From: an uncultured bacterium
Lineage (GTDB): Bacteria; Omnitrophota; Gorgyraeia; Duberdicusellales; CBEUCJ01
Assembly: GCA_965541615.1 (NCBI GenBank)
Contig: CBEUCJ010000001.1
Span: 195,754-259,753, forward strand
Length of the DNA stretch: 64,000 nucleotides
Direction of reading: 5' to 3'
Below are positions 14,555-33,334 of the stretch, piece after piece (positions within the stretch are counted from its first letter, which is position 1; the number at the start of each line of letters is the position of its first letter). The notes under the pieces were generated by a model that saw only the letters and a program-made list of their open reading frames with translations, had not been told where the DNA came from and did no database searches. Position numbers and translations under genes: made by a program.

Positions 14555-17500
14555 ATGGAAAAAATTCTTGAAGGAATAGATAAGGAAAAAGTATTAACTG
14601 GTCCACGAGTAGTCCAAATCGATTTAACAGATAAATGTAACTTAAACTGTATTTTTTGCTGGGTCCACTCACCTTTGTTCGATAAAAAAAAGATTTTTCC
14701 AGAAGGATTGAAAGAATTACCTTTTAAATTAGTTAAAAATTTAATAAAGGAATTAAAAGATTTAGGAACAGAAGAAATTATTCTTTCAGGATCAGGTGAA
14801 CCTTTTATGTATGATAAAATTTTAGAAGTTATAGATTTAATAAAATCTTATGGTTTTTATTTGAATATTATTACCAATGGTTTACTTATAAATGATAAGA
14901 TAGCAAAATTTTTAGTTGAGAAAAAAGTAGATCTTCTTACAGTAAGTGTATCTGCAGCTAAACCTTCTACATATTTAAAACTGCATCCTCCAGCTACTCA
15001 TGATGATTTTTTAAAACTTAAAAACAATTTAAAAAAAATATCTAATTATAAAAATGAAATTGTGACGATTTATCCTCATACAAAAATTTATAATGTAATC
15101 TGTAATAAAAATTACAGAGAGATTGAAGAGATGATAGATTTTGCAAAAGAAGTCGATGCAGATTCTGTTGAATTTCAAACAATAGATATAATTGAAAATA
15201 AAACAGAATTTTTAGCTTTAGGTAATAAAGAAAAAGAAGAAATTTTTGAAATATTTGAAAGAATAAGAAAAAGAAAAGATTTAATAGATTATGAAATTCC
15301 AAAAGAAAAAAAAATAAAAGATTTTATAAAAGAAGAATTTTCAGATTTTGGAAAGATATGGAAAAATTATAAAGAAAATTTTCAACTTACAAGATATGCA
15401 AAAGAACTTATATGCCCTAAAGGTTTTAATGGAGAAAGAAAAATAATTTTTCATACATATTCTCCTTATGCAACAAGAGTTTCTGATTTTTGGTATAAGT
15501 TTAATTTCAACAATAACTGTAAAGAATGTGAGTTGAAAAGAAAATGTTTCAATAAGAAAGAGGAAGTTGGAGAGGTTGATGTGAAGCTGTTGAATCTTTT
15601 AAATGTGGAAAGTTTTTTAAGAAAATTAGTTAACCTGGATAATCAGAATTTTACTTATAGAAAAGATATTGATAGTATCCCCTGTTATATAGGCTGGTAT
15701 TATGCACGAATTTTGACAAATGCAGATGTAATTCCTTGCTGTAAAGCTTATAAATTTGCTTTAGGTAATTTATACAAAAAATCATTTAGCCAAATTTGGA
15801 AATCAGAAAAATATAATGAATTTAGAATAAAAGCTAAAAATTTGTCAAAAAAAGACAAATATTTTTCTTTAATAAACTGTATAAAAGAATGTGATAATTG
15901 GGGAATGAATATGGAAATTCACAAAAAATTTATGGAATATAAAAAAGAAAAGGATATAAGAGAAAAATCATTTTCTTTAGTAATAAATGCTGATAAATTT
16001 TTTGAAGGGAATTTTAACAAAGGCAATCATGAGTTTGGTAAAGGGTTAATAATAGATGGAGGAGAAAAAAGAGGGCATGCATTATATTCTATAACTATAA
16101 AAGAAAATGGAAGATATGAATTATGGTCAAAATACGCTTCCTATCAAATAAGACCAGTTAAAATTTTTATTGATGGAAATTTAATAAAAGAAGATGGACT
16201 TTCAAAAATTACTGGAGGCTGGAATAAAGTTTTTTCAAAATGGTTTAAGGAAGGAGAAATCTATCTTAAAGAAGGAAAGCATATTTTAAAAATTGTAGCA
16301 GATAACTGCATTCCTCATATAGAGAAATTTGCCTTTTTAAAAAAAGAAGGAAAGATTAATTTATTTAATATCAAAACTTCTTATCTTGAAAAATTTAAAG
16401 ATATTCTTAAAAAAGAAGGTTTAAAAAAAGCTATTTATAAATTATTTTATAATCTTACTCCTTCAAATTTAAAAGACAGATATTTGGAGATTTTAGGAAT
16501 TTTAGATAAAGAATATGCTTATAAAGGCCCTTTTCATGTTCAGATAGATTTAACTAATGATTGTAATAGTAATTGCATTGCCTGTTGGTGCAATTCTCCT
16601 TTATTTAAAAAACCAAGATTAACACCTGAAGAAAAAAAAGAATATCTTCCCTTTTCTTTAGTTAAAGAAGTTTTAGATGAATTGAAAGCAATGCATACTA
16701 CAGAGATTTACTATTCAGGAGGTGGAGAACCTTTTATGCATCCTAATATTTTAGAAATTTTAGAGTATACAAAAAAGAAAGGATTTATAACTCATGTAAA
16801 TACAAATTTCACTTTAGTTAATAAAGATGTAGCTGATAAATTAATAGATATAGGTGTAGATTTTTTAACAGTAAGTGTATGGGCAGGGACTCCTCAAGTT
16901 TATAAAAAAGTCCATTTAAGAGATGAAGAGGTTTTTTTTAGAGTAAAAGATACTCTCCTGTACCTTAACAAAAGAAAAAAGCAAAAATACAACAAACCTT
17001 TAATTAAAATTTATTCTGTAATTTTTAATATGAATTATCATGAGATAGAAGAAATAATTAAATTTGCAGAAGATACTTTATCTGAGTCTATAGAATTCAC
17101 TTTAGTCGATACTATACCAGGAGTTACTGATGTATTGCGACTAAATGATAAGCAGTATGAAGAGTTAATTTATAAATTTGAAAAGATTAAAAGAAAATTA
17201 GATAAAAATAATAGACTTCCCTCAGGTTTACTTTTATTTCAATTTGAACAGTTTTTGCGAAGGATTTCTCAAAAAAACAATGTAAAAGAAGCAAAGTATG
17301 ATAAGAATATAATTGATAGTATGCCTTGTTATATTGGTTGGCTTTTTGCAAGAATTATCCCTAATGGAGAGGTTCATCCCTGTCTTAAGGCTCATCGTAT
17401 ACCTAGTGGTTCTTTATATTTAAATAGATTTTTTGAAATATGGAATTCAGATAAACAAAAATATTTCAGAAAAAAGACTTTAGTCTATGAAAAAAAGGAT

Positions 17501-18793
17501 CCCTTTTTTAGATTAATAGGAAATGACCCTTTTACAAAAGAAGCAGGTTGTTATAAAGTTTGTGATGATATTGGAAGAAACATGTGGATGCATTCAAGAA
17601 TAAGTATGTTAACTTATCCTGAAAAATTATTATTAAAAACAGCAGCAGCTGGCATAAAAATTTTAAGAAAAATAAAGCCTAAAAAAGAAGAATATAAAAT
17701 GTATCATAAAGACCCACTTATTGCAGGTATTCTTCATGGAAGAAAAGCATTTAGAGGTCCTAATCAGGTAGTCATTGATATTACAAATAAATGTAATTTA
17801 AATTGTATTGTTTGCTGGCTTTACTCACCTTTTTCAAAAGTGGATAAAGATTGGCTTAATGAAGAGATTTCCAAAGATACACTTTTTAGATTAATAAAAG
17901 ATTTAAAAGATATTCATACAGAACGTATAAGATTTACAGGTGGAGGAGAACCTTTTATGTGCAAGTATTTAATAGAGGCGATTGAATTTGCACGGAAAAA
18001 TGGTTTATTAGTGTCTATTACTACAAATTTTGGGTTAGTTTCAAAAAAAGATATAAAACGTTTAGTCGATTTAGAGGTTGATGAATTATGCATCAGTATT
18101 TGGGCAAAGAACAAAGAAACTTATTTAAAAACTCATCCATCTGTTTCAGAAAAATATTTTGAGAATTTAAAAGAAAATCTTTTATATCTTAAAGAGATTA
18201 AAAGAAAAAAGCCTCGAGTTACATTTGCAAATGTAATAATGAATTTGAATTATAAAGAATTTGATGAAATGTATGAATTTGCAAAAGAATATGGTGCTGA
18301 TGCAATTTATTTTACTCTTCCTGATGTTTTTAGAGATGAAATTAAAAGGTTCTTATTAAGTGATAAAGAGAAAGAATTTTTAATTAGAAAAGCAGAGAAG
18401 ATGAAAATGAAAGCAAAAAAAGACAAAATCGAACTTGAATTTTTTGAAGGGTTTATAAGAAGATTATCTAAAAAAGAAGAATTTACAAAAGGAGAGTATG
18501 ATAAAGATGATATAGATAAAATCCCCTGTTATGTAGGATGGATATTCTCACGCATTTTAGCAGATGGAAATGTGGTTCCTTGTTGTAGAGCTGTTAATAA
18601 AATAATGGGAAATGTAAATAAGACCTCTTTTAAAGATATATGGTATTCTCAAAAATATAATGAATTTAGAGCTAAAGCGAAGTTTTTAAAGAAAACACAC
18701 CCCTTTTTTAAAGACATAGGATGTATAAAAGAATGTGATAATTTTATGCATAATTTAGAAATTCATAGAAAGTTGAATAATGTGTTAATATAA
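14555..18793 (+). CDS. 1412-aa protein with three tandem radical SAM / SPASM(twitch)-type modules
   Basis: Module 1: IDLTDKCNLNCIFCW...GSGEPFM, then IPCYIGWYYARILTNADVIPCCKAY...CIKECDNW. Module 2: IDLTNDCNSNCIACWC...GGGEPFM, then MPCYIGWLFARIIPNGEVHPCLKAH...GCYKVCDD. Module 3: IDITNKCNLNCIVCW...GGGEPFM, then IPCYVGWIFSRILADGNVVPCCRAV...CIKECDNF. A Cys-free ~130-aa beta-rich insert (GKGLIIDGGEKRGHALYSITIKENGRYELW...ILKIVADNC) lies between modules 1 and 2. Confidence 0.7.
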   Translation: MEKILEGIDKEKVLTGPRVVQIDLTDKCNLNCIFCWVHSPLFDKKKIFPEGLKELPFKLVKNLIKELKDLGTEEIILSGSGEPFMYDKILEVIDLIKSYGFYLNIITNGLLINDKIAKFLVEKKVDLLTVSVSAAKPSTYLKLHPPATHDDFLKLKNNLKKISNYKNEIVTIYPHTKIYNVICNKNYREIEEMIDFAKEVDADSVEFQTIDIIENKTEFLALGNKEKEEIFEIFERIRKRKDLIDYEIPKEKKIKDFIKEEFSDFGKIWKNYKENFQLTRYAKELICPKGFNGERKIIFHTYSPYATRVSDFWYKFNFNNNCKECELKRKCFNKKEEVGEVDVKLLNLLNVESFLRKLVNLDNQNFTYRKDIDSIPCYIGWYYARILTNADVIPCCKAYKFALGNLYKKSFSQIWKSEKYNEFRIKAKNLSKKDKYFSLINCIKECDNWGMNMEIHKKFMEYKKEKDIREKSFSLVINADKFFEGNFNKGNHEFGKGLIIDGGEKRGHALYSITIKENGRYELWSKYASYQIRPVKIFIDGNLIKEDGLSKITGGWNKVFSKWFKEGEIYLKEGKHILKIVADNCIPHIEKFAFLKKEGKINLFNIKTSYLEKFKDILKKEGLKKAIYKLFYNLTPSNLKDRYLEILGILDKEYAYKGPFHVQIDLTNDCNSNCIACWCNSPLFKKPRLTPEEKKEYLPFSLVKEVLDELKAMHTTEIYYSGGGEPFMHPNILEILEYTKKKGFITHVNTNFTLVNKDVADKLIDIGVDFLTVSVWAGTPQVYKKVHLRDEEVFFRVKDTLLYLNKRKKQKYNKPLIKIYSVIFNMNYHEIEEIIKFAEDTLSESIEFTLVDTIPGVTDVLRLNDKQYEELIYKFEKIKRKLDKNNRLPSGLLLFQFEQFLRRISQKNNVKEAKYDKNIIDSMPCYIGWLFARIIPNGEVHPCLKAHRIPSGSLYLNRFFEIWNSDKQKYFRKKTLVYEKKDPFFRLIGNDPFTKEAGCYKVCDDIGRNMWMHSRISMLTYPEKLLLKTAAAGIKILRKIKPKKEEYKMYHKDPLIAGILHGRKAFRGPNQVVIDITNKCNLNCIVCWLYSPFSKVDKDWLNEEISKDTLFRLIKDLKDIHTERIRFTGGGEPFMCKYLIEAIEFARKNGLLVSITTNFGLVSKKDIKRLVDLEVDELCISIWAKNKETYLKTHPSVSEKYFENLKENLLYLKEIKRKKPRVTFANVIMNLNYKEFDEMYEFAKEYGADAIYFTLPDVFRDEIKRFLLSDKEKEFLIRKAEKMKMKAKKDKIELEFFEGFIRRLSKKEEFTKGEYDKDDIDKIPCYVGWIFSRILADGNVVPCCRAVNKIMGNVNKTSFKDIWYSQKYNEFRAKAKFLKKTHPFFKDIGCIKECDNFMHNLEIHRKLNNVLI

Positions 18794-18881: not shown

Positions 18882-19582
18882 ATGAAGTTGGAAATAGTAT
18901 TACCTGTATATAATGAAGAAGAGATTTTAGAAAAAAATGTAATAAGAGTCAAAAATTTTTTTAAGAAGCATAACTTCAAATTTATAATCTCTATTGTAGA
19001 TAATGGATCCACAGATAACACTTATAAAATTGCTAAAAATTTAGCAGATAAAAATGATAATATATTTGCTTTTAAATTGAAAAAAGGGGTAGAGGGAGAG
19101 CATTAAAATTTAGAATATTAAATTCTTCTTGTGCTATTTTGGGGTATATGGATATAGATTTATCTGCAGACCTTTATGATTTTTTGATATTGTATAGAGA
19201 AATTCAAAATGGGTATGATATAGTAATAGGTTCAAGATTGTTACCTGCTTCTTCTGTAAAAAGATCGATTCTCAGAAAATTACTTTCTCGAGTTTATAGC
19301 AAGATGGTAAGGAGAGTTTTGAATTTACCTTTTTTTGATTATCAATGTGGTTTTAAGTTATTTAGAAGAGAGAAAATCGTCTCACTAATGCCATTGATAA
19401 AAAATAATAATTGGTTTTTCGATACTGAGCTCATATTCTATGCATATAGAAAAAATTTAAAAATAAGAGAGATTCCTATAAGGTGGAAAGAAAGAAAATA
19501 TGGAAAGGTAAAGTTATTTCCTACGATTATTGAAGACATTAAAGGAATAATGAGATTGAGATTTAATAAAGAGTATTATTAG
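18882..19582 (+). pseudogene. GT2 glycosyltransferase (DPM1/polyprenol-phosphate-sugar synthase-like) split by a 1-nt frameshift in an A6G4 homopolymer (19080-19089)
   Basis: ORF 18882-19106 gives IVLPVYNEEE...SIVDNGSTDNT...FKLKKGVEGEH*. The next frame continues KRGRGRALKFRILNSSCAILGYMDIDLSAD...VIGSRL (the GT2 R-x-x-G-x-G-x-A-L ... DADL ... GSR motifs) into ORF 19139-19582. The split could be real (pseudogene or phase variation) or a homopolymer sequencing error. Confidence 0.55.
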
Positions 19583-19707
19583 CTAGTGTAGAGCATCATC
19601 AGATATATTATATGTTTCCTTTGATAAGTATAGGTTTAGTTTCAGGGTTAAGAGAAATTCAAAAATTAGTAATATACAAAAGAATAAATAATAATGAGTA
19701 GAAAACT

Positions 19708-20805
19708 TTGAAATACTCCTATTATATTAGAACATTATTAAATTATATAATTTTATATCCAAAACTTATTACTTTAAAATCCATCTATCGACTTTCTCTT
19801 TTATTATTTGGTAAAAATTATATCTCAGAACCTCTTACCATAAATTTTCTTATTACTCACAGATGTAATCTTAAATGCAAAATGTGTAGTTTTTTTGGAA
19901 GAAAGACTTATGAAACTAAAGAAAGAGATATAGAATTTGAGGATGTTAGAAAAATATTAATGAGTAGTAAAAAAATAAAGCCGATTATTTCTTTTGGTGG
20001 TGGAGAGCCATTTTTAAGAGAAGATTTTATTGATATATTAAAATTTGCTAAACATGAATGTAATTTAAAAGTGGTAGTGATTACAAATGGCTCTTTGCTT
20101 ACTGATAAGATAATAAAAACTATTGATAAACTAAACCTAATAGATTATTTTATAATATCTATACATGGTCTTTTTAATTTGCATGATGAAATAGTGGGAC
20201 TAAAGGGAGCTTTTGATAGAGTTGTTTCTAATATAAGAAAATTCTCTAAGAAACTTAAATCGAAGGTGATCGTTTCCTCAGTATTAATGAGAGAGAATAT
20301 ATTCTTTTTTGATGATTTTATAAGATTCTTTTTAAATGAAGGTATAAAAAAAATAAAAATAGAGCATTTGAACTTCCTAACAGAAGAAGAAACTAATCTT
20401 TATCAAAAAGAAAATATTTTTTTACCATTTACATTTATAAGAAAAGATTTATTCGAGAAAGAATTTATTGAAAAAGCTTGGTATACACTCGTTAATCTTA
20501 AAAGAAAATATCGTTCCAAACTCATTATTAAACCACCTCTCTCTCGAAAACAGTTTTATGAATGGTATGAAAAAAAAATTGGGAATAGCAATGAATTTTA
20601 TAGGCTTAGATGTGTTTTTATAAAACATTCTTTATTTATCGATCCACAAGGAGAAGTAATTCCATGCCAATTCCTTCGTAATTGTAAGATAGGAAATACC
20701 AAAAACAATGATCTTCTTAAATTGTGGAATTCTGCAATATATAAAAATATAAGAAAAATAATAAACAAAAGTAATTTTCCTGTTTGTTTTAGATGTTGTA
20801 AATAG
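19708..20805 (+). CDS. radical SAM / SPASM-domain protein
   Basis: INFLITHRCNLKCKMCSFFG (CxxxCxxC); FGGGEPF; C-terminal IDPQGEVIPCQFLRNCKIGN...FPVCFRCCK (SPASM-like Cys cluster). Confidence 0.65.
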   Translation: MKYSYYIRTLLNYIILYPKLITLKSIYRLSLLLFGKNYISEPLTINFLITHRCNLKCKMCSFFGRKTYETKERDIEFEDVRKILMSSKKIKPIISFGGGEPFLREDFIDILKFAKHECNLKVVVITNGSLLTDKIIKTIDKLNLIDYFIISIHGLFNLHDEIVGLKGAFDRVVSNIRKFSKKLKSKVIVSSVLMRENIFFFDDFIRFFLNEGIKKIKIEHLNFLTEEETNLYQKENIFLPFTFIRKDLFEKEFIEKAWYTLVNLKRKYRSKLIIKPPLSRKQFYEWYEKKIGNSNEFYRLRCVFIKHSLFIDPQGEVIPCQFLRNCKIGNTKNNDLLKLWNSAIYKNIRKIINKSNFPVCFRCCK

Positions 20806-20814: not shown

Positions 20815-23800
20815 ATGGCAGACTTCCCCAAATACCTTTCTATTCAAACCACATCTTTATGTAATGCTTCTTGTGTATTTTGTCCCTATAAAGATATAAA
20901 AGATTTATTTCCTAAAAAAATTATGGATATGAGACTATTTAAAAAAATAATAAATGAATGTTCAAACTATAAAGTTGAAAGAATAATCCTTTACATGAAT
21001 AATGAGCCTTTAACTGATCCTTACATAATAGAAAGGGTCAACTATGCAAAAGAAAAAGTACCTTGGGCTTGTGTTCATATTTTAACTAATGGTGTATTAC
21101 TTACTGATGAAATGGCAGAAAAAATTTTAAATTCAAAATTAGATTGGATTGGAATAAGTTTTCATGGGATAAGAAAAGAGACGGTTGAGAAAACAATGGG
21201 TATAAATTTTGATATAACATTTGAAAGGATTAATAAATTTATAGAAAAGGCAAAAAAAATAAAGAATATAAAGGAATACATAATGATAACTTTCCTAAAG
21301 CATAAATATTTAACAGATGAAGAAAAAGAAGAAGCGATTAAATACTGGAGAAATAAAGGAATAGAAAGAATTAGTTTTTTTGAAGCTCCTATCTCACGTG
21401 CAGGGAATGTAAAAAGTCTAAATAAGATATATCATAAAGAAAAAATTGTTGGTTGTAAATCTATATGGGCAGAAGAAATGATTCATATTACTGAGGATGG
21501 AAAAGTAATTTTATGTTGTATGGATTGGAGAAGGGAAGTTATTTTAGGAGATTTGAATAAAGAAAGTATATACAGTGTGTGGAATGGAAGAAGAAAAGAA
21601 ATTTGGCAGATGATTAAAGGATATAAAGAGATGCCAGAGGATTTTTTATGTAGAAGATGTGAAGAAGCAATAACAGAAAAAGAAAAAAAATCAGTTTTAC
21701 TTGTGAACTTACCTCCTTGGGGTGTAGATACTCCTTATTTAGGTATTGCTTCTCTTGCTAGTTATCTTAATAAGAACAGAATACCTACTCAAATATTCGA
21801 TTTTAATATAGAGTTGTATAATCTCGTTCCTTCAGAATATAAGTATCTATGGGGTATGAACTATAGTAGTTGGTGGAAAAATAAGTTTAGTTTTATTAAA
21901 GATAAAATAGGTCCTCATATTTATGCTTTAATGGAAAGATTGTTATACTTTCCTCACAAAATAATAGGATTTTCTCTTCCTTCAAATTGGTCATACACAA
22001 TTTTAGAAGAAATAGTAAGAAAAATAAAAGAGAGGGATAAAAATAAAATAATAATATTAGGAGGGATTTCTATATCAATAAAAGAACAAAGATTTGAGAT
22101 TTTAAAACGAATAGAAAAATATATAGATTATTGCATCATTGGTGAAGGAGAAAAGGCTTTGTATGAGATAGTAAAGAACATTTTTGAGAAAAAAGAAGAT
22201 GATATAAAAAAGATTAAAGGAGTATTAACAAAGGATACTTTTTTTAGTGATGGAGAAAAAGCAGAGATAGAATCACTCGATGAATTACCTTTTCCTTCCT
22301 TTGAGGAGTTTGATCTTGAAAAATACACTGCAAAAGGTAGCCTTCCTATAGAATTTTCTCGAGGGTGTATAGGTAATTGTTCATTTTGCGATTTTAAAAT
22401 AATTTCTCCTCGATTTAAGAAAAAGACAGCTTCTTACATTTTTAATCAGATTAAATATTATATAGAAAAGTATGGCATAAACCATCTTACAGTTGTAGAT
22501 CCTGCACTAAATTCAGATATAAAAACTTTAGAAGAATTATGTGATTTGCTAATCAAATACAAGGTTAAAATTAAGTTATCTGGTTTAGCTATTCCCCGAA
22601 AAGAGATGAGTTATGAATTACTCTGTAAGATGAAAAAAGCAGGCTTTTACCGTTTAGAATATGGAGTTGAAAGTGGCTCTGATAAAATTCTTAAGTTAAT
22701 GAGGAAAATGTTTACTTCTGAGATAGCTGAGAAAGTGATTAAAGATACTCATAGAGCAGGAATAGAAGTACATTTATATTTTATAGTAGGTTTTCCTGGA
22801 GAAGGAGAAAAAGAATTTAATGAAACAAAAGAATTTTTAAAAAGAGTAGCTTTATACGTAACAGCAATAAAATCAATTAATCCTCTTTATGTAATGGCAG
22901 GTTCAGAAATATTTTATCATCCAGAGAAATATGGGATTATTATACCTGATAATGAAGGTGATAGAAAATGGTATACAGTGAATTTAGATAACACTTTTGA
23001 TATAAGAAGAGAAAGAGTATTGGAGTTAAAAAGATGGGCAAAAGAACTAAATATAAAATTTTCAGAAGATGCTGAATCTTTGGAATTCACCTTAAAATTT
23101 GCTGAAAAGAAAAAAGAAAATGAAATTATAAGTATAAAAAAGAAAACGTTACCTGAGGAAGTTAAAAAATGTGATTTTCTTTTAATTAATCTTCCTCCTT
23201 GGTCTCAAGAAAATCCTCATATAGGTGTTGGTTATTTATGCAGTTATTTAAGAAAAAAAAGATTCAAACCTAAAGTTTTAGATTTAAATAAAAAATTTTA
23301 TCTTAACCATCAAGATTTTAAAATGCTCTGGCATGTGGAGAATAAAAATTTCTGGTCAAATGAATCTACATTTCCTTTGATTTTGAAAATTTTCAAAGAG
23401 GATATAGATAAAGCAATAGAGGAAGTTATTTCTTACGATTGTGAAGTTTTGGGGTTTTCTGTAGTAGATCCAAAAGAAAAACTTACCATTGAATTTATAA
23501 AAAGAATAAAAGAGAAAGCACCAGACAAAAAAATAATATTGGGAGGTCCTGCCACCTCTACTTATGAGCAGAGAAAGATTTTTTTAGATAATGTGGATAA
23601 AGATATAACTGCTTTTGTTATTGGAGAAGGTGAAGTCGCTCTCTTTTCTTTGTTGAGAAATATTTTAGAAAAGAGGGAGATAGATAACATTGAAGGATGT
23701 ATGGTTAAAAAAGATGGTAAGTGGAAATATAAAGAAAGAAAATTTTTTATTCCTCTTGATGAATTACCTTTTCCTACCTATGAAGAATTTGATATGAGTC

Positions 23801-24810
23801 TATATGGAAGATCTATTTTAGTTGAATGGTCAAGAGGTTGTATTGGAAGATGCGCTTTTTGTAAAAACTACAAACTTTTCCCTGTATTTAGAGTAAGATC
23901 TCCTGAGAATATATTAAAAGAATTAAGATTTCATAAAGAGAAATATAAAATTGAAGAATTCACAGTAGTAGATAATATATTAAATGGAGATTTAAATAAT
24001 TTAAGAAAAGTTTGTGAAAAAATAATAAAGGAAAATTTAAAAATAAGATGGACAGGCCAAATTGCTCCTTCAAAAAATATGGATTTTGAATTTTTTAAAT
24101 TATTAAAAAAAACAGGTTGTTTTAAATTACAAATTGGGTTTGAATCTGCTTCAAATAAGGTATTAAAAAAAATGAGAAAAACTTTTACTCAAGAAATATC
24201 TGAAAAGAATATAAGATATGCAAAGAAAGCAGGAATAGAAACAGAAATTTTTGTAATGGTAGGTTTTCCTGGTGAAGATGAAAAAGAATTTAAAAAGACT
24301 TATAATTTTATAAAAAGAAACTCAAAATATATTGATACTATAAAATCTATAAATACTCTGCATTTAATAGCAGGAACAGATGTATATGAGAAAAGAGAAG
24401 ATTTTGGAATAAAACCTTTACCTAAAGAAAATTGGCATTATTTATGGGAGACTTACGATGGAAATAATTATAAAATAAGAAAAAGAAGAGCAGAAATACT
24501 TTTAGATTTAGCTTACAATTTAGGAATAAAAGTTATGGAGACGAATATAACTGAAGGTAAAGAAAGTATATTTAAAGTTATAAAAGAAAAACCTCTTTGT
24601 GAAAAAATAGAATTGTTAAGGTCTTCCATTAATAATTTACAAGAACTCCCTCAAAAAAGAATAAGGAAGATAAGAAAAAAAAGGAGCTTTTTGAAGTATT
24701 TTATTTTGTTTTCACTTTCTTTTTACATATTTTTTTATATTGTATATTTTTGGATGTATATGATTTTAAAGAAAAAGATTATTTGGGGAGGAAAGTTGAA
24801 TAAGAAATAA
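20815..24810 (+). CDS. 1331-aa membrane-anchored protein with three radical SAM modules (1 twitch/SPASM-like + 2 tandem B12-binding class B modules)
   Basis: Module 1: IQTTSLCNASCVFCPYK...IVGCKSIW...ILCCMDW...FLCRRCEE. Module 2: NLPPWGVDTPYLGIASLASYL (B12-binding) + EFSRGCIGNCSFCDFK. Module 3: NLPPWSQENPHIGVGYLCSYL + EWSRGCIGRCAFCKNYK. Modules 2 and 3 are diverged tandem duplicates (DELPFPSFEEFD / DELPFPTYEEFD). C-terminal hydrophobic helix FILFSLSFYIFFYIVYFWMYMIL. Confidence 0.7.
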   Translation: MADFPKYLSIQTTSLCNASCVFCPYKDIKDLFPKKIMDMRLFKKIINECSNYKVERIILYMNNEPLTDPYIIERVNYAKEKVPWACVHILTNGVLLTDEMAEKILNSKLDWIGISFHGIRKETVEKTMGINFDITFERINKFIEKAKKIKNIKEYIMITFLKHKYLTDEEKEEAIKYWRNKGIERISFFEAPISRAGNVKSLNKIYHKEKIVGCKSIWAEEMIHITEDGKVILCCMDWRREVILGDLNKESIYSVWNGRRKEIWQMIKGYKEMPEDFLCRRCEEAITEKEKKSVLLVNLPPWGVDTPYLGIASLASYLNKNRIPTQIFDFNIELYNLVPSEYKYLWGMNYSSWWKNKFSFIKDKIGPHIYALMERLLYFPHKIIGFSLPSNWSYTILEEIVRKIKERDKNKIIILGGISISIKEQRFEILKRIEKYIDYCIIGEGEKALYEIVKNIFEKKEDDIKKIKGVLTKDTFFSDGEKAEIESLDELPFPSFEEFDLEKYTAKGSLPIEFSRGCIGNCSFCDFKIISPRFKKKTASYIFNQIKYYIEKYGINHLTVVDPALNSDIKTLEELCDLLIKYKVKIKLSGLAIPRKEMSYELLCKMKKAGFYRLEYGVESGSDKILKLMRKMFTSEIAEKVIKDTHRAGIEVHLYFIVGFPGEGEKEFNETKEFLKRVALYVTAIKSINPLYVMAGSEIFYHPEKYGIIIPDNEGDRKWYTVNLDNTFDIRRERVLELKRWAKELNIKFSEDAESLEFTLKFAEKKKENEIISIKKKTLPEEVKKCDFLLINLPPWSQENPHIGVGYLCSYLRKKRFKPKVLDLNKKFYLNHQDFKMLWHVENKNFWSNESTFPLILKIFKEDIDKAIEEVISYDCEVLGFSVVDPKEKLTIEFIKRIKEKAPDKKIILGGPATSTYEQRKIFLDNVDKDITAFVIGEGEVALFSLLRNILEKREIDNIEGCMVKKDGKWKYKERKFFIPLDELPFPTYEEFDMSLYGRSILVEWSRGCIGRCAFCKNYKLFPVFRVRSPENILKELRFHKEKYKIEEFTVVDNILNGDLNNLRKVCEKIIKENLKIRWTGQIAPSKNMDFEFFKLLKKTGCFKLQIGFESASNKVLKKMRKTFTQEISEKNIRYAKKAGIETEIFVMVGFPGEDEKEFKKTYNFIKRNSKYIDTIKSINTLHLIAGTDVYEKREDFGIKPLPKENWHYLWETYDGNNYKIRKRRAEILLDLAYNLGIKVMETNITEGKESIFKVIKEKPLCEKIELLRSSINNLQELPQKRIRKIRKKRSFLKYFILFSLSFYIFFYIVYFWMYMILKKKIIWGGKLNKK

Positions 24811-25029: not shown

Positions 25030-26490
25030 ATGAGAAGTGATACAAATAATACAATGAAAAATTTACTATTTGTATTTGGTATATTATTTCTCTTAAGACT
25101 GTACCATCTATCCTTTCAAGACTTCTGGTACGATGAAATATACACAGTTCGACATGTGAAAGTGCCTTGGTTTATTTGGAATCCTCCTTTTTATTACATT
25201 TTTCTTCATTTTTGGATAAGACTTTTTGGTATTTGTGAATTTTCTTTGAGATTTCCTTCTTTGATTTTCAGTTTTTTATCTTGTATATTGTTATTTTTAT
25301 TGGGTAAAAGACTCTTTAATGAAAAGATAGCTTTTATTGCTGTGCTTTTTATGGGATTATCTCCTTTTCAAATATGGTATGCTCAAGAAGCACGCAGTTA
25401 TAGCATGTTATTATTTTTCTCTTTATTGTCAAATTATTTATTTTTAAAAGCGATAGAAAAGGATAAACTACAATTATGGCTTTATTTTGTAGTAGTCTCA
25501 AGTTTGGGAGTTTATGTTAATTACTTTTTTATTTTTTTAATTGTAACTCAATTATTTTATCTTCTTTTTTCTAGGAAATTATCTTTATCTAAATTAGGTT
25601 TCTTTTCATTAATTTCAATTTTATTTTTGCCTTATTTAAAAAGATTTCTAGCAAAGTTTTTTACAGTGAAGAACGGTTTTTGGATCCCTCCTCCTTACAT
25701 GATGTCTTTTATATTTACATTAGAAAATTTTATTTTAGGATATAATGCTTTTTCTTTTTTGTATCGTTTGATAGATATTATAATTGCAGTAAGTTTTTTT
25801 GTGAGCTTGGCATATTCTTTAAAAATATTTGGAAAAAACGTTTTATTTTGTTTTTTCTTTCTCTTTTCCCCTCTTATATTAGTTTTTACCTTTTCTAAAC
25901 TATTTTTTTCTATTTATTTAGATAGAGGGTTAATATTTTCAAGCCCATATTTGTATTTACTTTTATCTTTGGGTTTATTTTATCTACCAAAAGGAGTAGT
26001 AAAACTTATAATTTTTAGTATAGTAGGATATAGTCTATTCTTCAGCCTTTTCCTTTACTACCGTAATGATTTTCTTTCTCCCCCTTTTCATCATATAGGT
26101 GTGGTGCCTAAATTGCCTATAAAGCCCCTCGTAAAATTTGTGGAGAATAATTTTAAGGAGGGAGATATGATTTTTTTTACAAATTATTCTCTTCTGCCTT
26201 CTTTTAGATTTTATAGTAAGAAAAAAGAATTATTATATTTTTTGTTTTTTCCTGGTAAAGCATTTAATCCTTTTTCTGCAAAACCTATTCAAGAAGCTTT
26301 ATTTCAAATTTCTGTTCAGAAAGTAAAAAAATTAAAATTTAATAAATTGTGGGTGATTTCCTGTAACTGGGAAAGAGACGGTTATTTAGATGAAAATTCA
26401 AAAGCAGTTAATGATTTTTTAATTAAGAATTTTAAATTAGAATTAGTAAAGGAAATCGATAAGACATGGGTATATAGATACAGCAGGTAA
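25030..26490 (+). CDS. GT-C fold membrane glycosyltransferase (ArnT/PMT, GT39/GT83-like)
   Basis: About 12 hydrophobic helices; QDFWYDEIYT first-loop DE motif typical of ArnT/PMT-type GT-C enzymes. Confidence 0.45.
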   Translation: MRSDTNNTMKNLLFVFGILFLLRLYHLSFQDFWYDEIYTVRHVKVPWFIWNPPFYYIFLHFWIRLFGICEFSLRFPSLIFSFLSCILLFLLGKRLFNEKIAFIAVLFMGLSPFQIWYAQEARSYSMLLFFSLLSNYLFLKAIEKDKLQLWLYFVVVSSLGVYVNYFFIFLIVTQLFYLLFSRKLSLSKLGFFSLISILFLPYLKRFLAKFFTVKNGFWIPPPYMMSFIFTLENFILGYNAFSFLYRLIDIIIAVSFFVSLAYSLKIFGKNVLFCFFFLFSPLILVFTFSKLFFSIYLDRGLIFSSPYLYLLLSLGLFYLPKGVVKLIIFSIVGYSLFFSLFLYYRNDFLSPPFHHIGVVPKLPIKPLVKFVENNFKEGDMIFFTNYSLLPSFRFYSKKKELLYFLFFPGKAFNPFSAKPIQEALFQISVQKVKKLKFNKLWVISCNWERDGYLDENSKAVNDFLIKNFKLELVKEIDKTWVYRYSR

Positions 26491-26560: not shown

Positions 26561-27727
26561 ATGAACGTTCTGATGATACATCCTCATGATTTGTTCGCAT
26601 GTGCAGAACCCTGGACAATAAGAATTATAAATATTGCAAAAGAGTTTGTAAAATTAAATCATAAAGTAAGACTTTGTTATTTTCCTTTATCTTTTGGAGA
26701 AAAAAATACGAAAAAAATTGATTCTATAGAAATTTTTCCCTTGGAAAGGAGACCAACTCCAATTTCATTTTTGAGAAATGTAAAAAAATTGATAGAATTA
26801 GCAAAATGGGCAGATGTAATTCATTTTCAAAAATGTCATCATTATTCAGCTATACCTGCAGTTTTAGCTGCTTATATTACAGGAAAACCCCTTCATTATG
26901 ATTGGGATGATTGGGAGGAAAAAATATGGTATGAGTCTTGTGGTAAAAGTTTACATTCAAGATTTATAGGTGTTTCTTTTAAAATTTTAGAAAGATGGCT
27001 TCCTGTTTTGGCTGATTCAGTTTCATGTTCTAGTAATTATCTAAAAAAAATAGCTTATAAATATGGAGTAAAAAAAGAATATATTTTTGATAGCCCTGTG
27101 GGGGCAGATTTAGAAAAATTTAGACCTGATTTAAATGGAAGCTGGGTTAGAGAAAAATACGATATAAAGGAACATTTAGTTTTATATATAGGGCAACTTC
27201 ATGGTGCTCAATATGTGGATTTATTCATAAAAGCAGCAAATATAGTTTTACATGAAAAACCAAATGCTACTTTTATGATTGTAGGAGAAGGATTTTTAAG
27301 GAGAAAATTAGAAAGATTAGTACAGGATTTAGGAATAGAAAATAAAGTTATTTTTACAGGAGCTGTTCCTCATAAAGAGATTCCTTATTATATTTGTGCA
27401 GCTGATATTTGTGTAGCTTCTTTTAAAAAAACAGAAGTGACTCAATGCAAATCTCCGTTAAAAATTGTAGAATATTTAGCTTGTGGAAAGCCAGTTGTAG
27501 CAAGTTTAGTAGGAGAAGTAAGAAGTATGGTGGGAGGAGTAGGTGTGTTAGTAGAACCTGGTAATCATTTGAATTTAGCAAAAGCTATAATCTTTCTTCT
27601 TGAAAATGAAGAGATAAGAAAAGAATTAGGCAAAAGAGCAAGAAAAAGAGTAGAATACAAATACAACTGGAATTTTACTGCTAAATCGATACTTTCTGCT
27701 TATGAAAAGATTTTAAATGACCCATGA
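26561..27727 (+). CDS. glycosyltransferase family 4 (GT-B)
   Basis: LVLYIGQLHGAQYVDLFIKAA...FMIVGEGFLRRKLERL...IFTGAVPHKEIPYYICAADICV...EYLACGKPVVAS is the canonical GT4 C-terminal domain. Confidence 0.65.
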   Translation: MNVLMIHPHDLFACAEPWTIRIINIAKEFVKLNHKVRLCYFPLSFGEKNTKKIDSIEIFPLERRPTPISFLRNVKKLIELAKWADVIHFQKCHHYSAIPAVLAAYITGKPLHYDWDDWEEKIWYESCGKSLHSRFIGVSFKILERWLPVLADSVSCSSNYLKKIAYKYGVKKEYIFDSPVGADLEKFRPDLNGSWVREKYDIKEHLVLYIGQLHGAQYVDLFIKAANIVLHEKPNATFMIVGEGFLRRKLERLVQDLGIENKVIFTGAVPHKEIPYYICAADICVASFKKTEVTQCKSPLKIVEYLACGKPVVASLVGEVRSMVGGVGVLVEPGNHLNLAKAIIFLLENEEIRKELGKRARKRVEYKYNWNFTAKSILSAYEKILNDP

Positions 27728-28170
27728 AAAGAGCTAACTATAAGTTACTGGGAGAGATTTTAGTAGAAGAGGGATTTATTAAAAAAGAGGATTTAGAAAT
27801 AGCGTTGGAAAGAAAAAAAAGAGAAAAGAAAATGTTAGGAGAAATTCTTTTAGAAATGGGTAGCTTAAAAGAAGAGGAGTTAGTTCAAGTTTTAAGTCTT
27901 CAATTTGGTTCTTCTTATTTACCTTTGGATAATTATGAGATAGATTTTCAAATAGTAAAAAGAATCCCTCAGGATATAATAGAAAAATATAAGATAATTC
28001 CTATCGATATTATTGGGAATATTTTAACGATAGTTACATTCGATCCTTCAAATTTAGAGTTAGAAGAATTGGAGAACGTATTAGGGTTTGATATACAGGT
28101 TTTTATATGTACAAAAAGTGAATTTGAGAGGGCTTTAAAGAAAATTAAACAGAATGTTTCTTCAGGATAA
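27724..28170 (+). CDS. stand-alone T2SSE_N (GspE N-terminal) domain protein with tandem MshEN-like c-di-GMP-binding motifs
   Basis: KLLGEILVEEGFIKKEDLEIALERKK + KMLGEILLEMGSLKEEELVQVLSLQ match the paired 24-residue MshEN motif. This is followed by the T2SSE_N fold (IIPIDIIGNILTIVTFDPSN). Confidence 0.5.
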   Translation: MKRANYKLLGEILVEEGFIKKEDLEIALERKKREKKMLGEILLEMGSLKEEELVQVLSLQFGSSYLPLDNYEIDFQIVKRIPQDIIEKYKIIPIDIIGNILTIVTFDPSNLELEELENVLGFDIQVFICTKSEFERALKKIKQNVSSG

Positions 28171-29851
28171 ACTTAAAGAAATATTAATTGAAAAAAAACT
28201 CATTGCTGAAGATGATCTTAAAAATGCTTTGAAGCTTCAAAAAGAAAAAGGAGGATTACTTTCAGATATATTAATAAAAATGGGTTTAATAGATGAAAAA
28301 AGATTAACTTTGGCTCTAAGCCAAAGTTTAAACATCCCTGTCTTAAGATTGAGTAAATTTAAAATAGATAAAGAGGTAATAAAACTTATGCCTTTGGAAT
28401 TGATAAAAAAATACCAGATTTTACCTTTAGCAAAAATAGGAAAAATACTTACTGTAGCTTTAGGAGACCCTCTAAATATTTTTGCTATAGATGATTTAAA
28501 AGCTGTAACTGGTTTACATATAAATCCTATTTTAGCTTTACCTTCAGAAGTAAAAGAAAATATAAATAAACTTTTTGCTCAAGATACAGAAAGAACTTTA
28601 GAAGAGATTTTAAAGAAAACTGAGAAACCAAATTTAGAGTTTATCCCTGTTCAGAAAGAGGAGTTGAGTACTCAAGAAGTTGAAGAAGCTCCTATCGTTA
28701 AGTACACTTATACTTTACTTAAAAAAGCCATAGAGAAAAGAGCTTCAGATATCTTAATAGAGCCTTTAGAGAAGAAAGTGAAGATAAGATTTAGAATAGA
28801 TGGTGTTTTACGTGAAGAGGAGTTAATCCCTAAGAATGTGCATAATTTTATTGTTACAAGGATAAAAGTAATGTCTAAATTAAATGTAGCTGAACACAGA
28901 CTTCCTCAAGATGGTAGGTTTAAGATAAAAATCAATAACAGAGAGATAGATTTTAGAGTTTCTATTCTCCCTTCAAGTTTTGGAGAAAAGATAGCTTTAA
29001 GAGTTTTAGATAAAAGTATGGGGTTGTTAGATTTAGATAGTTTAGGTTTTGAAAAAGATAATTTGGAAAAGATTAAAAAATCTGCTTCTATGCCCCATGG
29101 AATGATTTTGGTTTGTGGTCCTTCAGGTTCAGGTAAGACCACCACACTTTATGCTATCCTTAAATTCGTTGATTCTCCTGAGAAAAATTTGATTACAGTT
29201 GAGGATCCTGTAGAATATCAGATAAAAACAGCTACACAGATAAATGTAAATCCTGAAGTAGGTTTAACTTTTGCTTCTGCTTTGAGATCTATTTTAAGAC
29301 AAGACCCAGATATCATAATGGTTGGAGAGATTAGAGATCCAGAGACTTTAGATATAGCTATAAAAGCTGCTTTAACAGGACATTTGTTGTTATCTACAGT
29401 TCATACTACCACAGCTTCAGGAGCAATAGTTAGGTTATTAAATATGGGAGCAGAAAATTATCTTTTAACTTCATGTTTAATATGTGTGATAGCTCAGAGG
29501 TTAGTTAGAAAACTATGTGAGCATTGTAAAGAAGAGAAGTTAATAAAAAGAGAAATAATTGAGAGATTAAAAATGCCTTGTAAATCTTGTGAAGAAAATG
29601 TAAGAGTATTTGTTCCTAAAGGATGCGATAAATGTTTTAACACAGGTTATTTAGGAAGGATTGGAATATGTGAGGTTTTATCTATGAGTAATGAAATCAG
29701 AGAATTAATTTTAAAAAATGCACAGGAATCTGAGATTAGAAATAAAGCTAGATCAGAAGGGATGAGGACTCTAAGAGAAGATGGATTTGTTAAGGTAATC
29801 AAAGGGATTACTTCTTTAGATGAAGTTTTAAGGATAACAGCTCCAGAGTAG
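28154..29851 (+). CDS. pilB: type IV pilus assembly ATPase PilB/GspE family
   Basis: Walker A LVCGPSGSGKTTTLYA; VGEIRDPETLDIAIKAALTGHLLLSTVHT; tetracysteine CEHCK...CKSCE...GCDKC; N-terminal T2SSE_N domain with weaker MshEN-like motifs (KLKEILIEKKLIAEDDLKNALKLQ...LLSDILIKMGLIDEKRLTLALSQ). Confidence 0.8.
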   Translation: MFLQDKLKEILIEKKLIAEDDLKNALKLQKEKGGLLSDILIKMGLIDEKRLTLALSQSLNIPVLRLSKFKIDKEVIKLMPLELIKKYQILPLAKIGKILTVALGDPLNIFAIDDLKAVTGLHINPILALPSEVKENINKLFAQDTERTLEEILKKTEKPNLEFIPVQKEELSTQEVEEAPIVKYTYTLLKKAIEKRASDILIEPLEKKVKIRFRIDGVLREEELIPKNVHNFIVTRIKVMSKLNVAEHRLPQDGRFKIKINNREIDFRVSILPSSFGEKIALRVLDKSMGLLDLDSLGFEKDNLEKIKKSASMPHGMILVCGPSGSGKTTTLYAILKFVDSPEKNLITVEDPVEYQIKTATQINVNPEVGLTFASALRSILRQDPDIIMVGEIRDPETLDIAIKAALTGHLLLSTVHTTTASGAIVRLLNMGAENYLLTSCLICVIAQRLVRKLCEHCKEEKLIKREIIERLKMPCKSCEENVRVFVPKGCDKCFNTGYLGRIGICEVLSMSNEIRELILKNAQESEIRNKARSEGMRTLREDGFVKVIKGITSLDEVLRITAPE

Positions 29852-29855
29852 TTTT

Positions 29856-31544
29856 ATGAGACTTAAAGAGAAAATACTTGTTAAGTTAAAGAATAAAGGG
29901 ATTTCAGAAAATGAGATAAAAGAACTCTTAGCTATAAAAGAGTTTTCTGAATTTAAAGAAAGATTGTTTTCTGAAAAATTACTTACAAAAGAAGAATTTT
30001 TAAAGATACTTTCTGAAGAATTTCAGATTCCTTTGATAAATTTAAAAGATTTAAAGATTAGCAAGGATTTAAAAAAACTTTTACCTAAAGATACAGCCTT
30101 AAAGTATAAAATAGCACCTGTTGAAAGTAGAGAGAATATTTTAAAAATAGCTATCTCAGATCCTTCTGATATTTTTGTCAAACAGGATTTAGAAATCTTA
30201 GTTAATAAGAAAATAGAGTATGTTTTAGCTTCAGAAGAAGAGATTAAGATTCTTCAGGAAAGATTATATGGACTTGAAAAAGATACTGTAGATATCTTAA
30301 AAGAAGTAAAAGATTTAGGTGAGCCTGAACTTACAGAAGTTGAAGAGCTGAAAGTAGATTCAGTTATAAGAGAAGCAGAAAGACCACCCATAGTAAAAAT
30401 AGTAGATTTACTCCTTTATGAAGGTTTAAGAAGGAGAGCTTCAGATATTCATATAGAACCTAAAGAAGATTGCTTGAAAGTAAGATACAGAATAGATGGC
30501 ATCTTACAAGAAGCTTACAACATTCCTAAAAAAAATCAAAATGCTATTATTGCCAGATTGAAGATAATGTCCAGATTAGATATGACTGAAACAAGGATTC
30601 CTCAAGATGGAAGATTTAAGGTAAAATTTGAAGGTAGAGAAATAGACTTTAGGGTTTCAAGTCTTCCTTCAATTTTTGGAGAAAAATTTGTTTTAAGGAT
30701 TTTAGACAAAGAGAATCTTTTTGTAGGATTAGATAAATTAGGATTTTCACCTGAACCCTTAGAGATATTTAAAGAAGCTATTAAAAGACCTTTTGGGATG
30801 ATTTTGGTAACAGGTCCTACAGGTTCTGGAAAGTCTACGACACTCTATTCTATAATTCAACAGTTAAACACTCCTGATAGAAATATAATAACCATTGAAG
30901 ACCCTGTAGAGTATCAAATAGAAGGAATAACTCAAATTCAAGTAAGACCTGAAATAGGATTAGATTTTGCTCAAGGATTAAGAGCTATATTACGCCAAAG
31001 TCCAGATATTATCTTAGTAGGTGAGATTAGAGATACTGAGACTGCTGACATAGCTATAAAAGCTGCTTTGACAGGGACTTTGATTTTATCTACATTACAC
31101 ACAAATGATGCTTGTGGAGCTATTACGAGATTAGAGAACATGGGAATAGAACCTTTCTTGATAGCTTCTTCATTGATATTGGTTACTGCTCAAAGATTAT
31201 GTAGAAAAATTTGTGATAAATGCAAATATAGTTATAATGTTTCAGAAGTAGTTTTAAAAAGATTGGGATTAGAGCATTTGAAAGATAAAAAATTTTATTA
31301 TGGAAAAGGATGCCAAAATTGTAATAATACAGGTTACAAAGGTAGGACCCCTATTTTAGAATGTTTGTATATAGATGATGCAGTAAAAGAGTTAATAATA
31401 AAGTGTGCTTCTAGTGATCAAATTAAAAATTTTGTGATAAAAAACAAAGGATTTAAGACTTTGAGAGACGATGCTCTTAAGAAATGTTTAGAAGGAGTTA
31501 TAAGTTTAGAAGAGATGGTAAGAGTAACTGCTGAGGAGGAGTAA
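29856..31544 (+). CDS. second PilB/GspE-type assembly ATPase (paralog)
   Basis: LVTGPTGSGKSTTLYS; VGEIRDTETADIAIKAALTGTLILSTLHT; CDKCK...GCQNCNNTGYKGR; 562 aa with an N-terminal T2SSE_N domain, so assembly-type, not PilT. Confidence 0.75.
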   Translation: MRLKEKILVKLKNKGISENEIKELLAIKEFSEFKERLFSEKLLTKEEFLKILSEEFQIPLINLKDLKISKDLKKLLPKDTALKYKIAPVESRENILKIAISDPSDIFVKQDLEILVNKKIEYVLASEEEIKILQERLYGLEKDTVDILKEVKDLGEPELTEVEELKVDSVIREAERPPIVKIVDLLLYEGLRRRASDIHIEPKEDCLKVRYRIDGILQEAYNIPKKNQNAIIARLKIMSRLDMTETRIPQDGRFKVKFEGREIDFRVSSLPSIFGEKFVLRILDKENLFVGLDKLGFSPEPLEIFKEAIKRPFGMILVTGPTGSGKSTTLYSIIQQLNTPDRNIITIEDPVEYQIEGITQIQVRPEIGLDFAQGLRAILRQSPDIILVGEIRDTETADIAIKAALTGTLILSTLHTNDACGAITRLENMGIEPFLIASSLILVTAQRLCRKICDKCKYSYNVSEVVLKRLGLEHLKDKKFYYGKGCQNCNNTGYKGRTPILECLYIDDAVKELIIKCASSDQIKNFVIKNKGFKTLRDDALKKCLEGVISLEEMVRVTAEEE

Positions 31545-31551
31545 TTTTTAG

Positions 31552-32757: not shown

Positions 32758-32760
32758 AGC

Positions 32761-32789
32761 TTGACACCCTAAATTTTGAATAGTAAACT
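32761..32789 (+). promoter_or_regulatory. sigma70-like promoter for the pilin gene (-35 TTGACA, 17-nt spacer, -10 TAAACT), with a strong SD AGGAGGTG at 32841-32848
   Basis: ttgacaccctaaattttgaatagtaaact read directly; the SD lies 9 nt before the ATG at 32858. Confidence 0.45.
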
Positions 32790-33304: not shown

Positions 33305-33334
33305 TAATTTTTTTGTTTTTATGTTAATTAAAAA

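Follow-up and report, generated by a model that had tools for sequence, protein, structure and literature searches.

What does an enzyme with three radical S-adenosylmethionine (SAM) active sites on one chain with a predicted membrane anchor do inside a probable operon for glycan export? The question is raised by a 64,000-nt stretch of DNA from an uncultured Omnitrophota bacterium (GenBank assembly GCA_965541615.1, contig CBEUCJ010000001.1, positions 195,754 to 259,753; hereafter the window, whose coordinates we use throughout), in which a gene at 20815..24810 encodes a 1331-aa tri-modular radical-SAM protein. We find that this protein is almost certainly built from a BtrN-like twitch radical-SAM unit (module T), two class B radical-SAM units (modules B and A), and a C-terminal anchor, a plan that we abbreviate T-B-A-anchor. 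Its gene neighborhood makes it somewhat better than an even bet that the protein tailors a lipid-linked glycan or glycolipid before export by an ATP-binding cassette (ABC) transporter, with cytoplasmic radical chemistry that probably includes C-methylation.

The open reading frame (ORF) runs uninterrupted on the forward strand from an ATG start. An earlier note on this DNA, made from the sequence alone, had reckoned with the chance that the ORF is split in the real genome. It is intact: a 98%-identical gene, also 1331 aa long, is carried by two independent assemblies, and the three-module plan is common to >20 relatives, which together argue that the ORF is no assembly artefact. Pfam placed Radical_SAM (PF04055) on three stretches of the protein (222.7 bits), B12-binding (PF02310) on two (63.2 bits; cutoff 32.1), and SPASM on one (aa 218-282 only). 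These matches and the structural models agree with the layout proposed in the earlier note, namely one radical-SAM module with an auxiliary cluster, two B12-type radical-SAM modules, and a C-terminal anchor. All motifs quoted there are present: in module T, SLCNASCVFCPYK (aa 14-26), CCMDW (aa 234-238), and CRRCEE (aa 279-284); and in the B12 modules, NLPPW (aa 298 and aa 792), SRGCIGNCSFC (aa 515-525), and SRGCIGRCAFC (aa 1006-1016). The features of the protein are as follows.

20815..24810, forward strand: whole ORF, tri-modular radical-SAM protein of 1331 aa with T-B-A-anchor plan (Pfam; copies in independent assemblies)
20815..21693, forward strand: module T (aa 1-293), BtrN-like radical-SAM core and twitch domain (PDB sequence search; Foldseek)
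20860..20883, forward strand: CxxxCxxC of module T (C16, C20, C23), invariant in the alignment
21454..21660, forward strand: twitch auxiliary-cluster cysteines (C214, C234, C235, C279, C282), all invariant (alignment with BtrN)
21694..23184, forward strand: module B (aa 294-790), Rossmann cobalamin-binding domain and radical-SAM barrel of the "first-position" type (Pfam; AlphaFold2; Foldseek; clade B)
22366..22389, forward strand: CxxxCxxC of module B (C518, C522, C525), invariant in the alignment
23185..24549, forward strand: module A (aa 791-1245), Rossmann cobalamin-binding domain and radical-SAM barrel of the constant "terminal" type (AlphaFold2; Foldseek; clade A)
23839..23862, forward strand: CxxxCxxC of module A (C1009, C1013, C1016), invariant in the alignment
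24685..24768, forward strand: C-terminal hydrophobic anchor helix (aa ~1291-1318), flanked by Lys/Arg and followed by a conserved LLGG-like tail (Kyte-Doolittle; alignment; AlphaFold)

The CxxxCxxC motif that binds the SAM cluster is intact in every module of every relative, and Foldseek searches with the module models matched >100 radical-SAM structures at E<=1e-3, as expected for the barrel fold. No NCBIfam model reached its cutoff, whether the query was the full-length protein or a single module.

Module T had been described as SPASM-like. That it is a radical-SAM module with an auxiliary cluster holds, but the full seven-Cys SPASM pattern (CX9-15GX4C ... CX2CX5CX3C ... C) does not, since the CX2CX5CX3C element is missing. 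Beyond the core, module T contains only five cysteines (C214, C234, C235, C279, and C282), all invariant in relatives, and we therefore assign it a single auxiliary cluster and a twitch rather than a SPASM domain. The closest known enzyme by sequence is BtrN (4m7s; E 5.7e-9, ~39 bits, collinear from residue 8), and BtrN is also the best fold match in Foldseek (4m7t; E 5.8e-11, target-normalized TM-score 0.74). C235 aligns with BtrN C187 and C279/C282 with the BtrN CxxC, while C214 lies 21 residues upstream of C235, at the CX14GX4C position. As in a BtrN-type twitch domain, four cysteines are thus collinear with the BtrN auxiliary-cluster ligands within a β-hairpin/helix C-terminal extension. 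An ISRAGN motif in module T is invariant across relatives. Orthology to BtrN, which would make module T a 2-deoxy-scyllo-inosamine (2-DOIA) dehydrogenase, was rejected in view of the 39-bit match (E 5.7e-9) and a genetic context of Wzm/Wzt and glycosyltransferases.

The other two units, modules B and A, are radical-SAM modules of the cobalamin type (class B), for which sequence and models predict cobalamin binding. AlphaFold2 modeled them with high confidence (predicted local distance difference test 89.1 for module B and 88.6 for module A; predicted template modeling score 0.82 for module A), whereas the predicted template modeling score of a model spanning aa 1-800, 0.66, is too low for the relative orientation of the modules to be read from it. 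Foldseek matched module B to OxsB, TsrM, MgmA, AprD4, and CysS, and module A to OxsB (1e-17) and then to TsrM, MgmA, CysS, TokK, and AprD4. The matches to the cobalamin radical-SAM enzymes OxsB, TsrM, MgmA, CysS, and TokK extend over both domains (E 1e-15 to 1e-19). OxsB is the top fold match of both modules, and AprD4 has the highest target-normalized TM-score against them (0.70-0.72).

The earlier note had proposed that absence of a DxHxxG-type signature would speak against cobalamin binding. As it turns out, neither Rossmann domain contains the motif, the only D.H..G of the protein being DTHRAG at aa 644, inside the barrel, but the test is not a valid one and we dropped it, because structurally defined class B enzymes are His-off: OxsB, TsrM, and TokK hold their cobalamin base-off/His-off, and DxHxxG has been called "a bit of a red herring" (PMC9204698). 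The cobalamin signatures proper are a Gly-Gly on β4 and a Gly-Glu that starts α5 (PMC9204698). Both occur in module B (G416G417 and G445E446) and in module A (G910G911 and G939E940), at the modeled strand end and helix start where they are expected, and their invariance in relatives argues for bound cobalamin.

The two B12 modules had also been called duplicates. They are paralogs, with 38% identity over 447 aligned residues (E 2e-92), and an 18-nt word, GATGAATTACCTTTTCCT, occurs exactly twice in the window (zero copies expected by chance), at 23758, as noted earlier, and at 22279, where the earlier note gave 22281. The module period is confirmed by weaker DNA repeats that are in register and lie ~1480 nt apart. 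The duplication is not, however, a recent one. In a neighbor-joining tree and average-linkage clustering of 156 B12 modules, module B falls among B12 modules that come first in other proteins (type B). Module A falls among those that come last in longer proteins or are the only B12 module of ~840-aa proteins (type A). We therefore reject a recent tandem duplication and regard modules B and A as ancient paralogs with separate identities.

This pattern extends across a family. A database search yielded 93 clusters of relatives, of which nearly all that carry a name are Candidatus Omnitrophota, and a scan of species-representative genomes found 42 loci, almost all in metagenome-assembled genomes of Omnitrophota or with coarse Planctomycetes-Verrucomicrobia-Chlamydiae labels. 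The lengths of the relatives step through ~840, 1330, 1820, and 2320 aa, corresponding to one N-terminal T module and one to four B12 modules. The general plan is T-(B/D/E/F/G)n-A-anchor, realized as T-A, T-B-A (the tri-modular protein), T-E-A, T-D-A, T-F-A, T-B-F-A, T-B-D-A, T-B-G-A, and T-B-G-D-A. Where the type A module is found, the anchor is always present; a branch with T-C and T-B-C forms lacks it. Module T also exists as a free ~290-aa protein (70-74% identity), and at one locus (L048) a free T gene is followed by separately encoded B12 genes with the order kept. The modules are autonomous. That they are found both as separate genes and shuffled into new combinations points to independent reactions, each at its own site, and away from an obligatory series of two steps; the two successive methyl transfers put forward in the earlier note are a conjecture. 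An exhaustive search seeded with module A gave 1638 representative clusters (E<=1e-30), and of the top 150 roughly half contain two to four B12 radical-SAM stretches per chain. Chains of class B modules are therefore common in metagenomes, although the literature searched contained no description of them.

The C-terminal helix proposed in the earlier note is borne out. The segment at aa ~1291-1318 is the sole hydrophobic segment of the protein (the only one above 1.6 on the Kyte-Doolittle scale), and AlphaFold renders it as one continuous helix. Conservation goes beyond hydrophobicity to the sequence itself, Y-x-x-F-Y-I-x-Y-F-W ... L-L-G-G. Because the Fe-S and SAM domains belong in the cytoplasm, the bulk of the protein is probably cytoplasmic, with its tail at the inner membrane face.

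The operon around the gene supplies the link to glycans. In the window, the tri-modular protein is encoded in a tightly spaced block of forward-strand genes. GT9 and GT4 glycosyltransferases, an FAD oxidoreductase, Wzm, a 1115-aa Wzt, and a 735-aa HpnJ-like B12 radical-SAM enzyme form its first part; a 1412-aa triple radical-SAM/twitch-like protein, a GT2, a 365-aa radical-SAM-SPASM protein, the tri-modular protein itself, a PMT_2 GT-C glycosyltransferase, and a GT4 form the second. The neighbors that matter most here are the following.

8220-9002, forward strand: Wzm (Pfam ABC2_membrane), syntenic in relatives
8999-12346, forward strand: long Wzt of 1115 aa (Pfam ABC_tran; NCBIfam TagH/Wzt-like, below equivalog cutoffs), syntenic in relatives
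12336-14543, forward strand: HpnJ-like B12 radical-SAM enzyme of 735 aa (NCBIfam), syntenic in relatives
14555-18793, forward strand: 1412-aa protein with three radical-SAM/twitch-like modules, syntenic in relatives
19708..20805, forward strand: accessory radical-SAM-SPASM protein of 365 aa, 9 nt before the start of the tri-modular gene, found at few other loci only
25030-26490, forward strand: PMT_2 GT-C glycosyltransferase, downstream neighbor of the tri-modular gene
26561-27727, forward strand: conserved GT4 glycosyltransferase (GT4b), 50-68% identical in relatives

When proteins of this operon were searched against 45 loci by tblastn, GT4b lay directly downstream of the homolog of the tri-modular gene in 27 of them. 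Wherever a contig extends far enough, the order Wzm, long Wzt, 735-aa radical-SAM enzyme, triple radical-SAM protein, tri-modular protein, GT4b, and a second GT4 (GT4a) recurs (for example, at L017, L018, L020, L022, L023, L025, L037, and L039), and L048 shows synteny as well. The functional link to the Wzm/Wzt exporter suggested earlier is therefore supported by many Omnitrophota loci, with permease, ATPase, and glycosyltransferases adjacent and conserved as in ABC-transporter-dependent glycan pathways, and the recurring order means that the operon encodes seven to eight radical-SAM active sites. Comparison with the upstream 735-aa enzyme, which the earlier note had recommended, showed it to be a more distant paralog of both B12 modules (27-29% identity). 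Its best family is HpnJ (265 bits; cutoff 578), and its ~240-aa N-terminal domain has no Pfam match. The 1412-aa protein consists of three tandem radical-SAM modules, each followed by a twitch-like domain with four or five cysteines and 25-28% identical to module T; its gene is syntenic with the tri-modular gene in most loci. The long form of Wzt (1146-1167 aa) adjoins radical-SAM genes in relatives too, and its extension may serve to recognize the modified glycan or to dock the radical-SAM enzymes. A 577-aa ORF had no match in Pfam. A scan for promoters and terminators across 18.5-27.8 kb gave the same counts as shuffled sequence, so the operon boundary is not callable by this means.

Gene fusions of the "Rosetta-stone" kind connect the modules with sugar chemistry. 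In P0086 a T-type module (46% identity) shares one chain with a GT4 glycosyltransferase, and in P0092 and P0093 B12 radical-SAM units are fused to PMT_2 GT-C and GT9 glycosyltransferases. The corresponding genes belong to clear-cut glycan clusters, in which Wzm/Wzt or Wzx is accompanied by a DegT aminotransferase, an acetyltransferase, and numerous glycosyltransferases. At the locus of a five-module relative, P0041 (L003 167-10004), a GT4 (905 aa) and a carbamoyltransferase N-domain (906 aa) are each joined to radical-SAM/SPASM units, and these fusions adjoin an NAD-dependent sugar epimerase/dehydratase.

The mechanism that we propose is as follows. The tri-modular protein would be a tail-anchored, cytoplasm-facing enzyme with three autonomous radical-SAM catalysts, all held by the C-terminal helix at the inner face of the cytoplasmic membrane. 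The two conserved GT4 glycosyltransferases would build the substrate, either a glycan linked to polyprenol or a glycolipid; that it is a sugar we regard as fairly probable. Module T, with its SAM cluster and one auxiliary [4Fe-4S] cluster, would abstract hydrogen from a carbohydrate C-H and so oxidize or epimerize a sugar carbinol. Modules B and A would each methylate an unactivated sugar carbon, at different positions. If the substrate is indeed a sugar, the case for methylation by these two modules is evenly balanced. The HpnJ-like B12 radical-SAM enzyme and the triple twitch radical-SAM protein would process the same substrate further, and the transporter formed by Wzm and the long Wzt would export the modified product last. 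Methylation is favored because the per-module scores are highest for methyltransferase families and because methylation is what the majority of characterized class B enzymes catalyze (PMC9204698). NCBIfam gave 143.5 and 141.7 bits for TIGR03975 (cutoff 281.85) and 124 and 140 bits for PhpK in modules B and A, respectively, compared with 87-97 bits for HpnJ and BchE.

Several observations weigh against this proposal. All curated family scores are far below cutoff, so the chemistry is not assignable by homology. OxsB (a ring-contraction enzyme), AprD4 (a cobalamin-independent diol dehydratase), and HpnJ, the nearest family of the 735-aa neighbor, are non-methylases, the first two of which act on sugar rings, and the B12 modules may accordingly do something other than methyl transfer. 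The ~870-aa C-terminal extension of Wzt has no match in Pfam or the PDB, and no carbohydrate-binding module is recognizable in it. Neither an initiating phosphoglycosyl transferase nor a nucleotide-sugar pathway gene was found in the conserved block, and no polyprenol-phosphate initiating transferase was recognized among the annotated ORFs of the window. The nearest solved relatives of GT4b include the glycolipid and small-molecule glycosyltransferases PimB', BshA, and MshA, so the product could be a glycolipid rather than a polymer. Finally, the topology of the tail anchor, in insertion as in orientation, is a prediction.

The main alternative keeps the lipid-linked sugar but has the B12 modules catalyze rearrangement, ring contraction, or deoxygenation, possibly without cobalamin. 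It draws on the same structural neighbors, namely OxsB as top fold match of both modules, AprD4 with the highest TM-score, and a neighboring 735-aa paralog that scores best against HpnJ. We nevertheless consider it unlikely, given that the per-module scores favor methyltransferase families over HpnJ, BchE, and AprD4, that the invariant Gly-Gly and Gly-Glu argue for bound cobalamin, and that methylases predominate among characterized class B enzymes.

Lower still we place the possibility that the protein tailors a membrane lipid or the polyprenol carrier, for example by methyl branching or cross-linking of alkyl chains in the manner of the hopanoid, ladderane, and tetraether-lipid radical-SAM enzymes, with the ABC-2 transporter moving the lipid. 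The membrane anchor would suit such a role, rSAM_ladder_B12 (100-107 bits), HpnJ, and HpnR are among the matches, and Omnitrophota elsewhere carry radical-SAM lipid genes (10.1101/2023.10.20.563219). The block itself, however, is without lipid-synthesis genes and is syntenic with two GT4 genes; module T and B12 radical-SAM units are fused directly to glycosyltransferases, and BtrN, the closest relative of module T, acts on an aminocyclitol.

A role in maturation of a ribosomally made, post-translationally modified peptide (RiPP), with multiple C-methylations and cross-linking of the peptide, is improbable. The idea comes from the name of the top NCBIfam match, "RiPP maturation radical SAM C-methyltransferase" (TIGR03975), which reaches only about half of its cutoff in either module, and from the prevalence of SPASM/twitch domains in RiPP maturases, of which SuiB and SkfB are among the fold matches. 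The cluster motif of module T begins at residue 16, which leaves no space for an N-terminal peptide-recognition domain (RiPP recognition element). No precursor-like ORF lies nearby, a conserved one is largely absent across 40+ loci, and no small ORF, protease, or RiPP exporter is conserved; the conserved neighbors are Wzm/Wzt and glycosyltransferases. That the ORF is chimeric or degenerate, through misassembly or as a fusion in which some modules are inactive relics, can be dismissed for practical purposes: the window is low-GC, metagenome-type sequence and a neighboring GT2 gene is frameshifted, but the same 1331-aa ORF comes from independent assemblies, all cluster cysteines and cofactor motifs are invariant across relatives, and each module type forms its own conserved clade.

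Glycan tailoring before export thus remains the preferred reading. A broader form of it is attractive but tentative, and we rate it as distinctly the less probable: Omnitrophota may possess a phylum-wide "radical-SAM glycan-tailoring line" with 7-10 radical-SAM sites per Wzm/Wzt operon and with distinct cobalamin-dependent module types A-G that are combined behind a BtrN-like module in the manner of an assembly line and held at the membrane by the conserved tail. Each module would then add its own radical modification, such as a C-methyl branch, to a lipid-linked sugar chain, and the number and order of modules might encode a heavily C-branched surface glycan made without oxygen.

Some other features of the window deserve mention. 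In the sister assembly (L050, region 6366-8886), the GT2 gene of the block codes for a DPM1/GtrB-like enzyme of 232 aa; in the window (18882-19582) an A-run near 19079 is shorter by 1 nt, and the gene is thereby frameshifted and split. Behind GT2, L050 and L051 encode a polytopic membrane protein of 610 aa, of which the window has lost all but the last ~29 codons (19612-19701). Strain-level decay of an accessory lipid-sugar branch may account for the two changes; alternatively, a sequencing error in the homopolymer may have coincided with a real deletion. Just upstream of the glycan block, a further radical-SAM protein of 560 aa is encoded on the reverse strand (491-2173). On its other side the cluster abuts a full pilus operon (27724-39092) with two tandem PilB ATPases and a stand-alone MshEN ORF. 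Within that operon (32858-35421), the gene for a 683-aa PMT_2 and TPR GT-C glycosyltransferase comes immediately after that for a type IV pilin, an arrangement reminiscent of pilin glycosyltransferase genes. A link between the glycan block and pilin glycosylation was set aside, because the adjacency is found in the same species only and not at other loci. Genes at 39180-46408 for an acyl-AMP ligase, an MMPL/RND-like transporter, a LolA-like protein, a DUF1302 protein, and an omptin-like barrel look together like a lipid or lipoprotein export module. The window has a GC content of ~27% and includes genes for LeuRS, MurJ, UvrC, and ComEC. Its cumulative GC skew rises monotonically and nearly all genes lie on the forward strand, as would fit a segment of one replichore in a small chromosome.

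Omnitrophota is a phylum with almost no cultured members, and includes host-dependent nanobacteria. To our knowledge, radical-SAM and cobalamin-dependent radical-SAM enzymes are known almost entirely from cofactor, antibiotic, RiPP, and lipid pathways, as soluble enzymes with a single module. In literature searches on Omnitrophota radical SAM, radical SAM with Wzt, proteins with multiple radical-SAM domains, and B12 radical SAM with polysaccharide, the present family was described nowhere. A 2026 Omnitrophota preprint mentions radical SAM only as a Pfam domain that co-occurs with sugar-metabolism domains in giant proteins. The parts are known, a twitch radical-SAM unit nearest to BtrN and class B units nearest to OxsB, TsrM, TokK, CysS, and MgmA, although no curated family admits any of them. 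The novelty lies in how they are arranged: as many as five radical-SAM cores per chain, combinatorial module types, and a conserved tail anchor, all within a conserved Wzm/Wzt glycan operon of Omnitrophota. Should the substrate prove to be a lipid-linked glycan, this would be the first example in the literature searched of extensive radical, and probably C-alkylating, tailoring of a cell-surface polysaccharide. It would offer a natural test bed for specialization of class B modules, it might yield unusual branched sugars of use as Omnitrophota biomarkers or antigens, and it would tie cobalamin supply to envelope biogenesis in these host-dependent nanobacteria.

Comparison with characterized systems places the protein further. 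BtrN, the twitch radical-SAM 2-deoxy-scyllo-inosamine dehydrogenase of butirosin biosynthesis (PDB 4M7S/4M7T), resembles module T in the position of its CxxxCxxC motif and in its C-terminal twitch domain, with four cysteines for one auxiliary [4Fe-4S] cluster, and its aminocyclitol substrate is carbohydrate-like. Module T differs in its additional invariant C234 and invariant ISRAGN motif, in being fused to B12 modules or to GT4, and in belonging to a glycan-export operon rather than an aminoglycoside cluster. The class B enzymes of known structure (OxsB, TsrM, TokK, CysS, and MgmA) share with modules B and A the two-domain plan of a Rossmann cobalamin domain followed by a radical-SAM barrel, as well as the base-off type Gly-Gly and Gly-Glu without a His ligand motif. 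Identity to them is only 13-20%, no curated family cutoff is reached, and they are single-module, soluble enzymes of secondary metabolism or protein modification, whereas the present family chains two to four B12 modules behind a twitch radical-SAM unit, with a predicted tether to the membrane. GenK, GenD1, and Fom3-type enzymes are sugar and small-molecule C-methylases (PMC9204698) and provide the functional precedent, in that class B enzymes can methylate unactivated sugar carbons, the chemistry proposed for modules B and A. Their substrates are soluble aminoglycoside or phosphonate intermediates rather than lipid-linked glycans, and no structure or curated model of these enzymes was among the matches.

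The classic protein with two radical-SAM domains is FbiC, the F0 synthase, a CofG-CofH fusion that carries out two steps of one cofactor synthesis. Like the tri-modular protein, it has more than one complete radical-SAM active site per polypeptide; unlike it, FbiC has no B12 or twitch domain and no anchor, and the present family reaches five radical-SAM cores per chain in a combinatorial module order. In ABC-transporter-dependent O-polysaccharide pathways, terminal or tailoring modification is represented by WbdD with Wzm/Wzt, WbdD being a conventional SAM methyltransferase/kinase. The two systems are alike in that a membrane-associated cytoplasmic modifier, as the tri-modular protein is predicted to be, is encoded with Wzm/Wzt and GT4 transferases, polymerizing ones in the WbdD system, and in that Wzt bears a C-terminal extension. 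They differ in the extension itself, which in the present operon is ~870 aa long and lacks a detectable carbohydrate-binding module, and in the modifiers, which here amount to seven or eight radical-SAM active sites.

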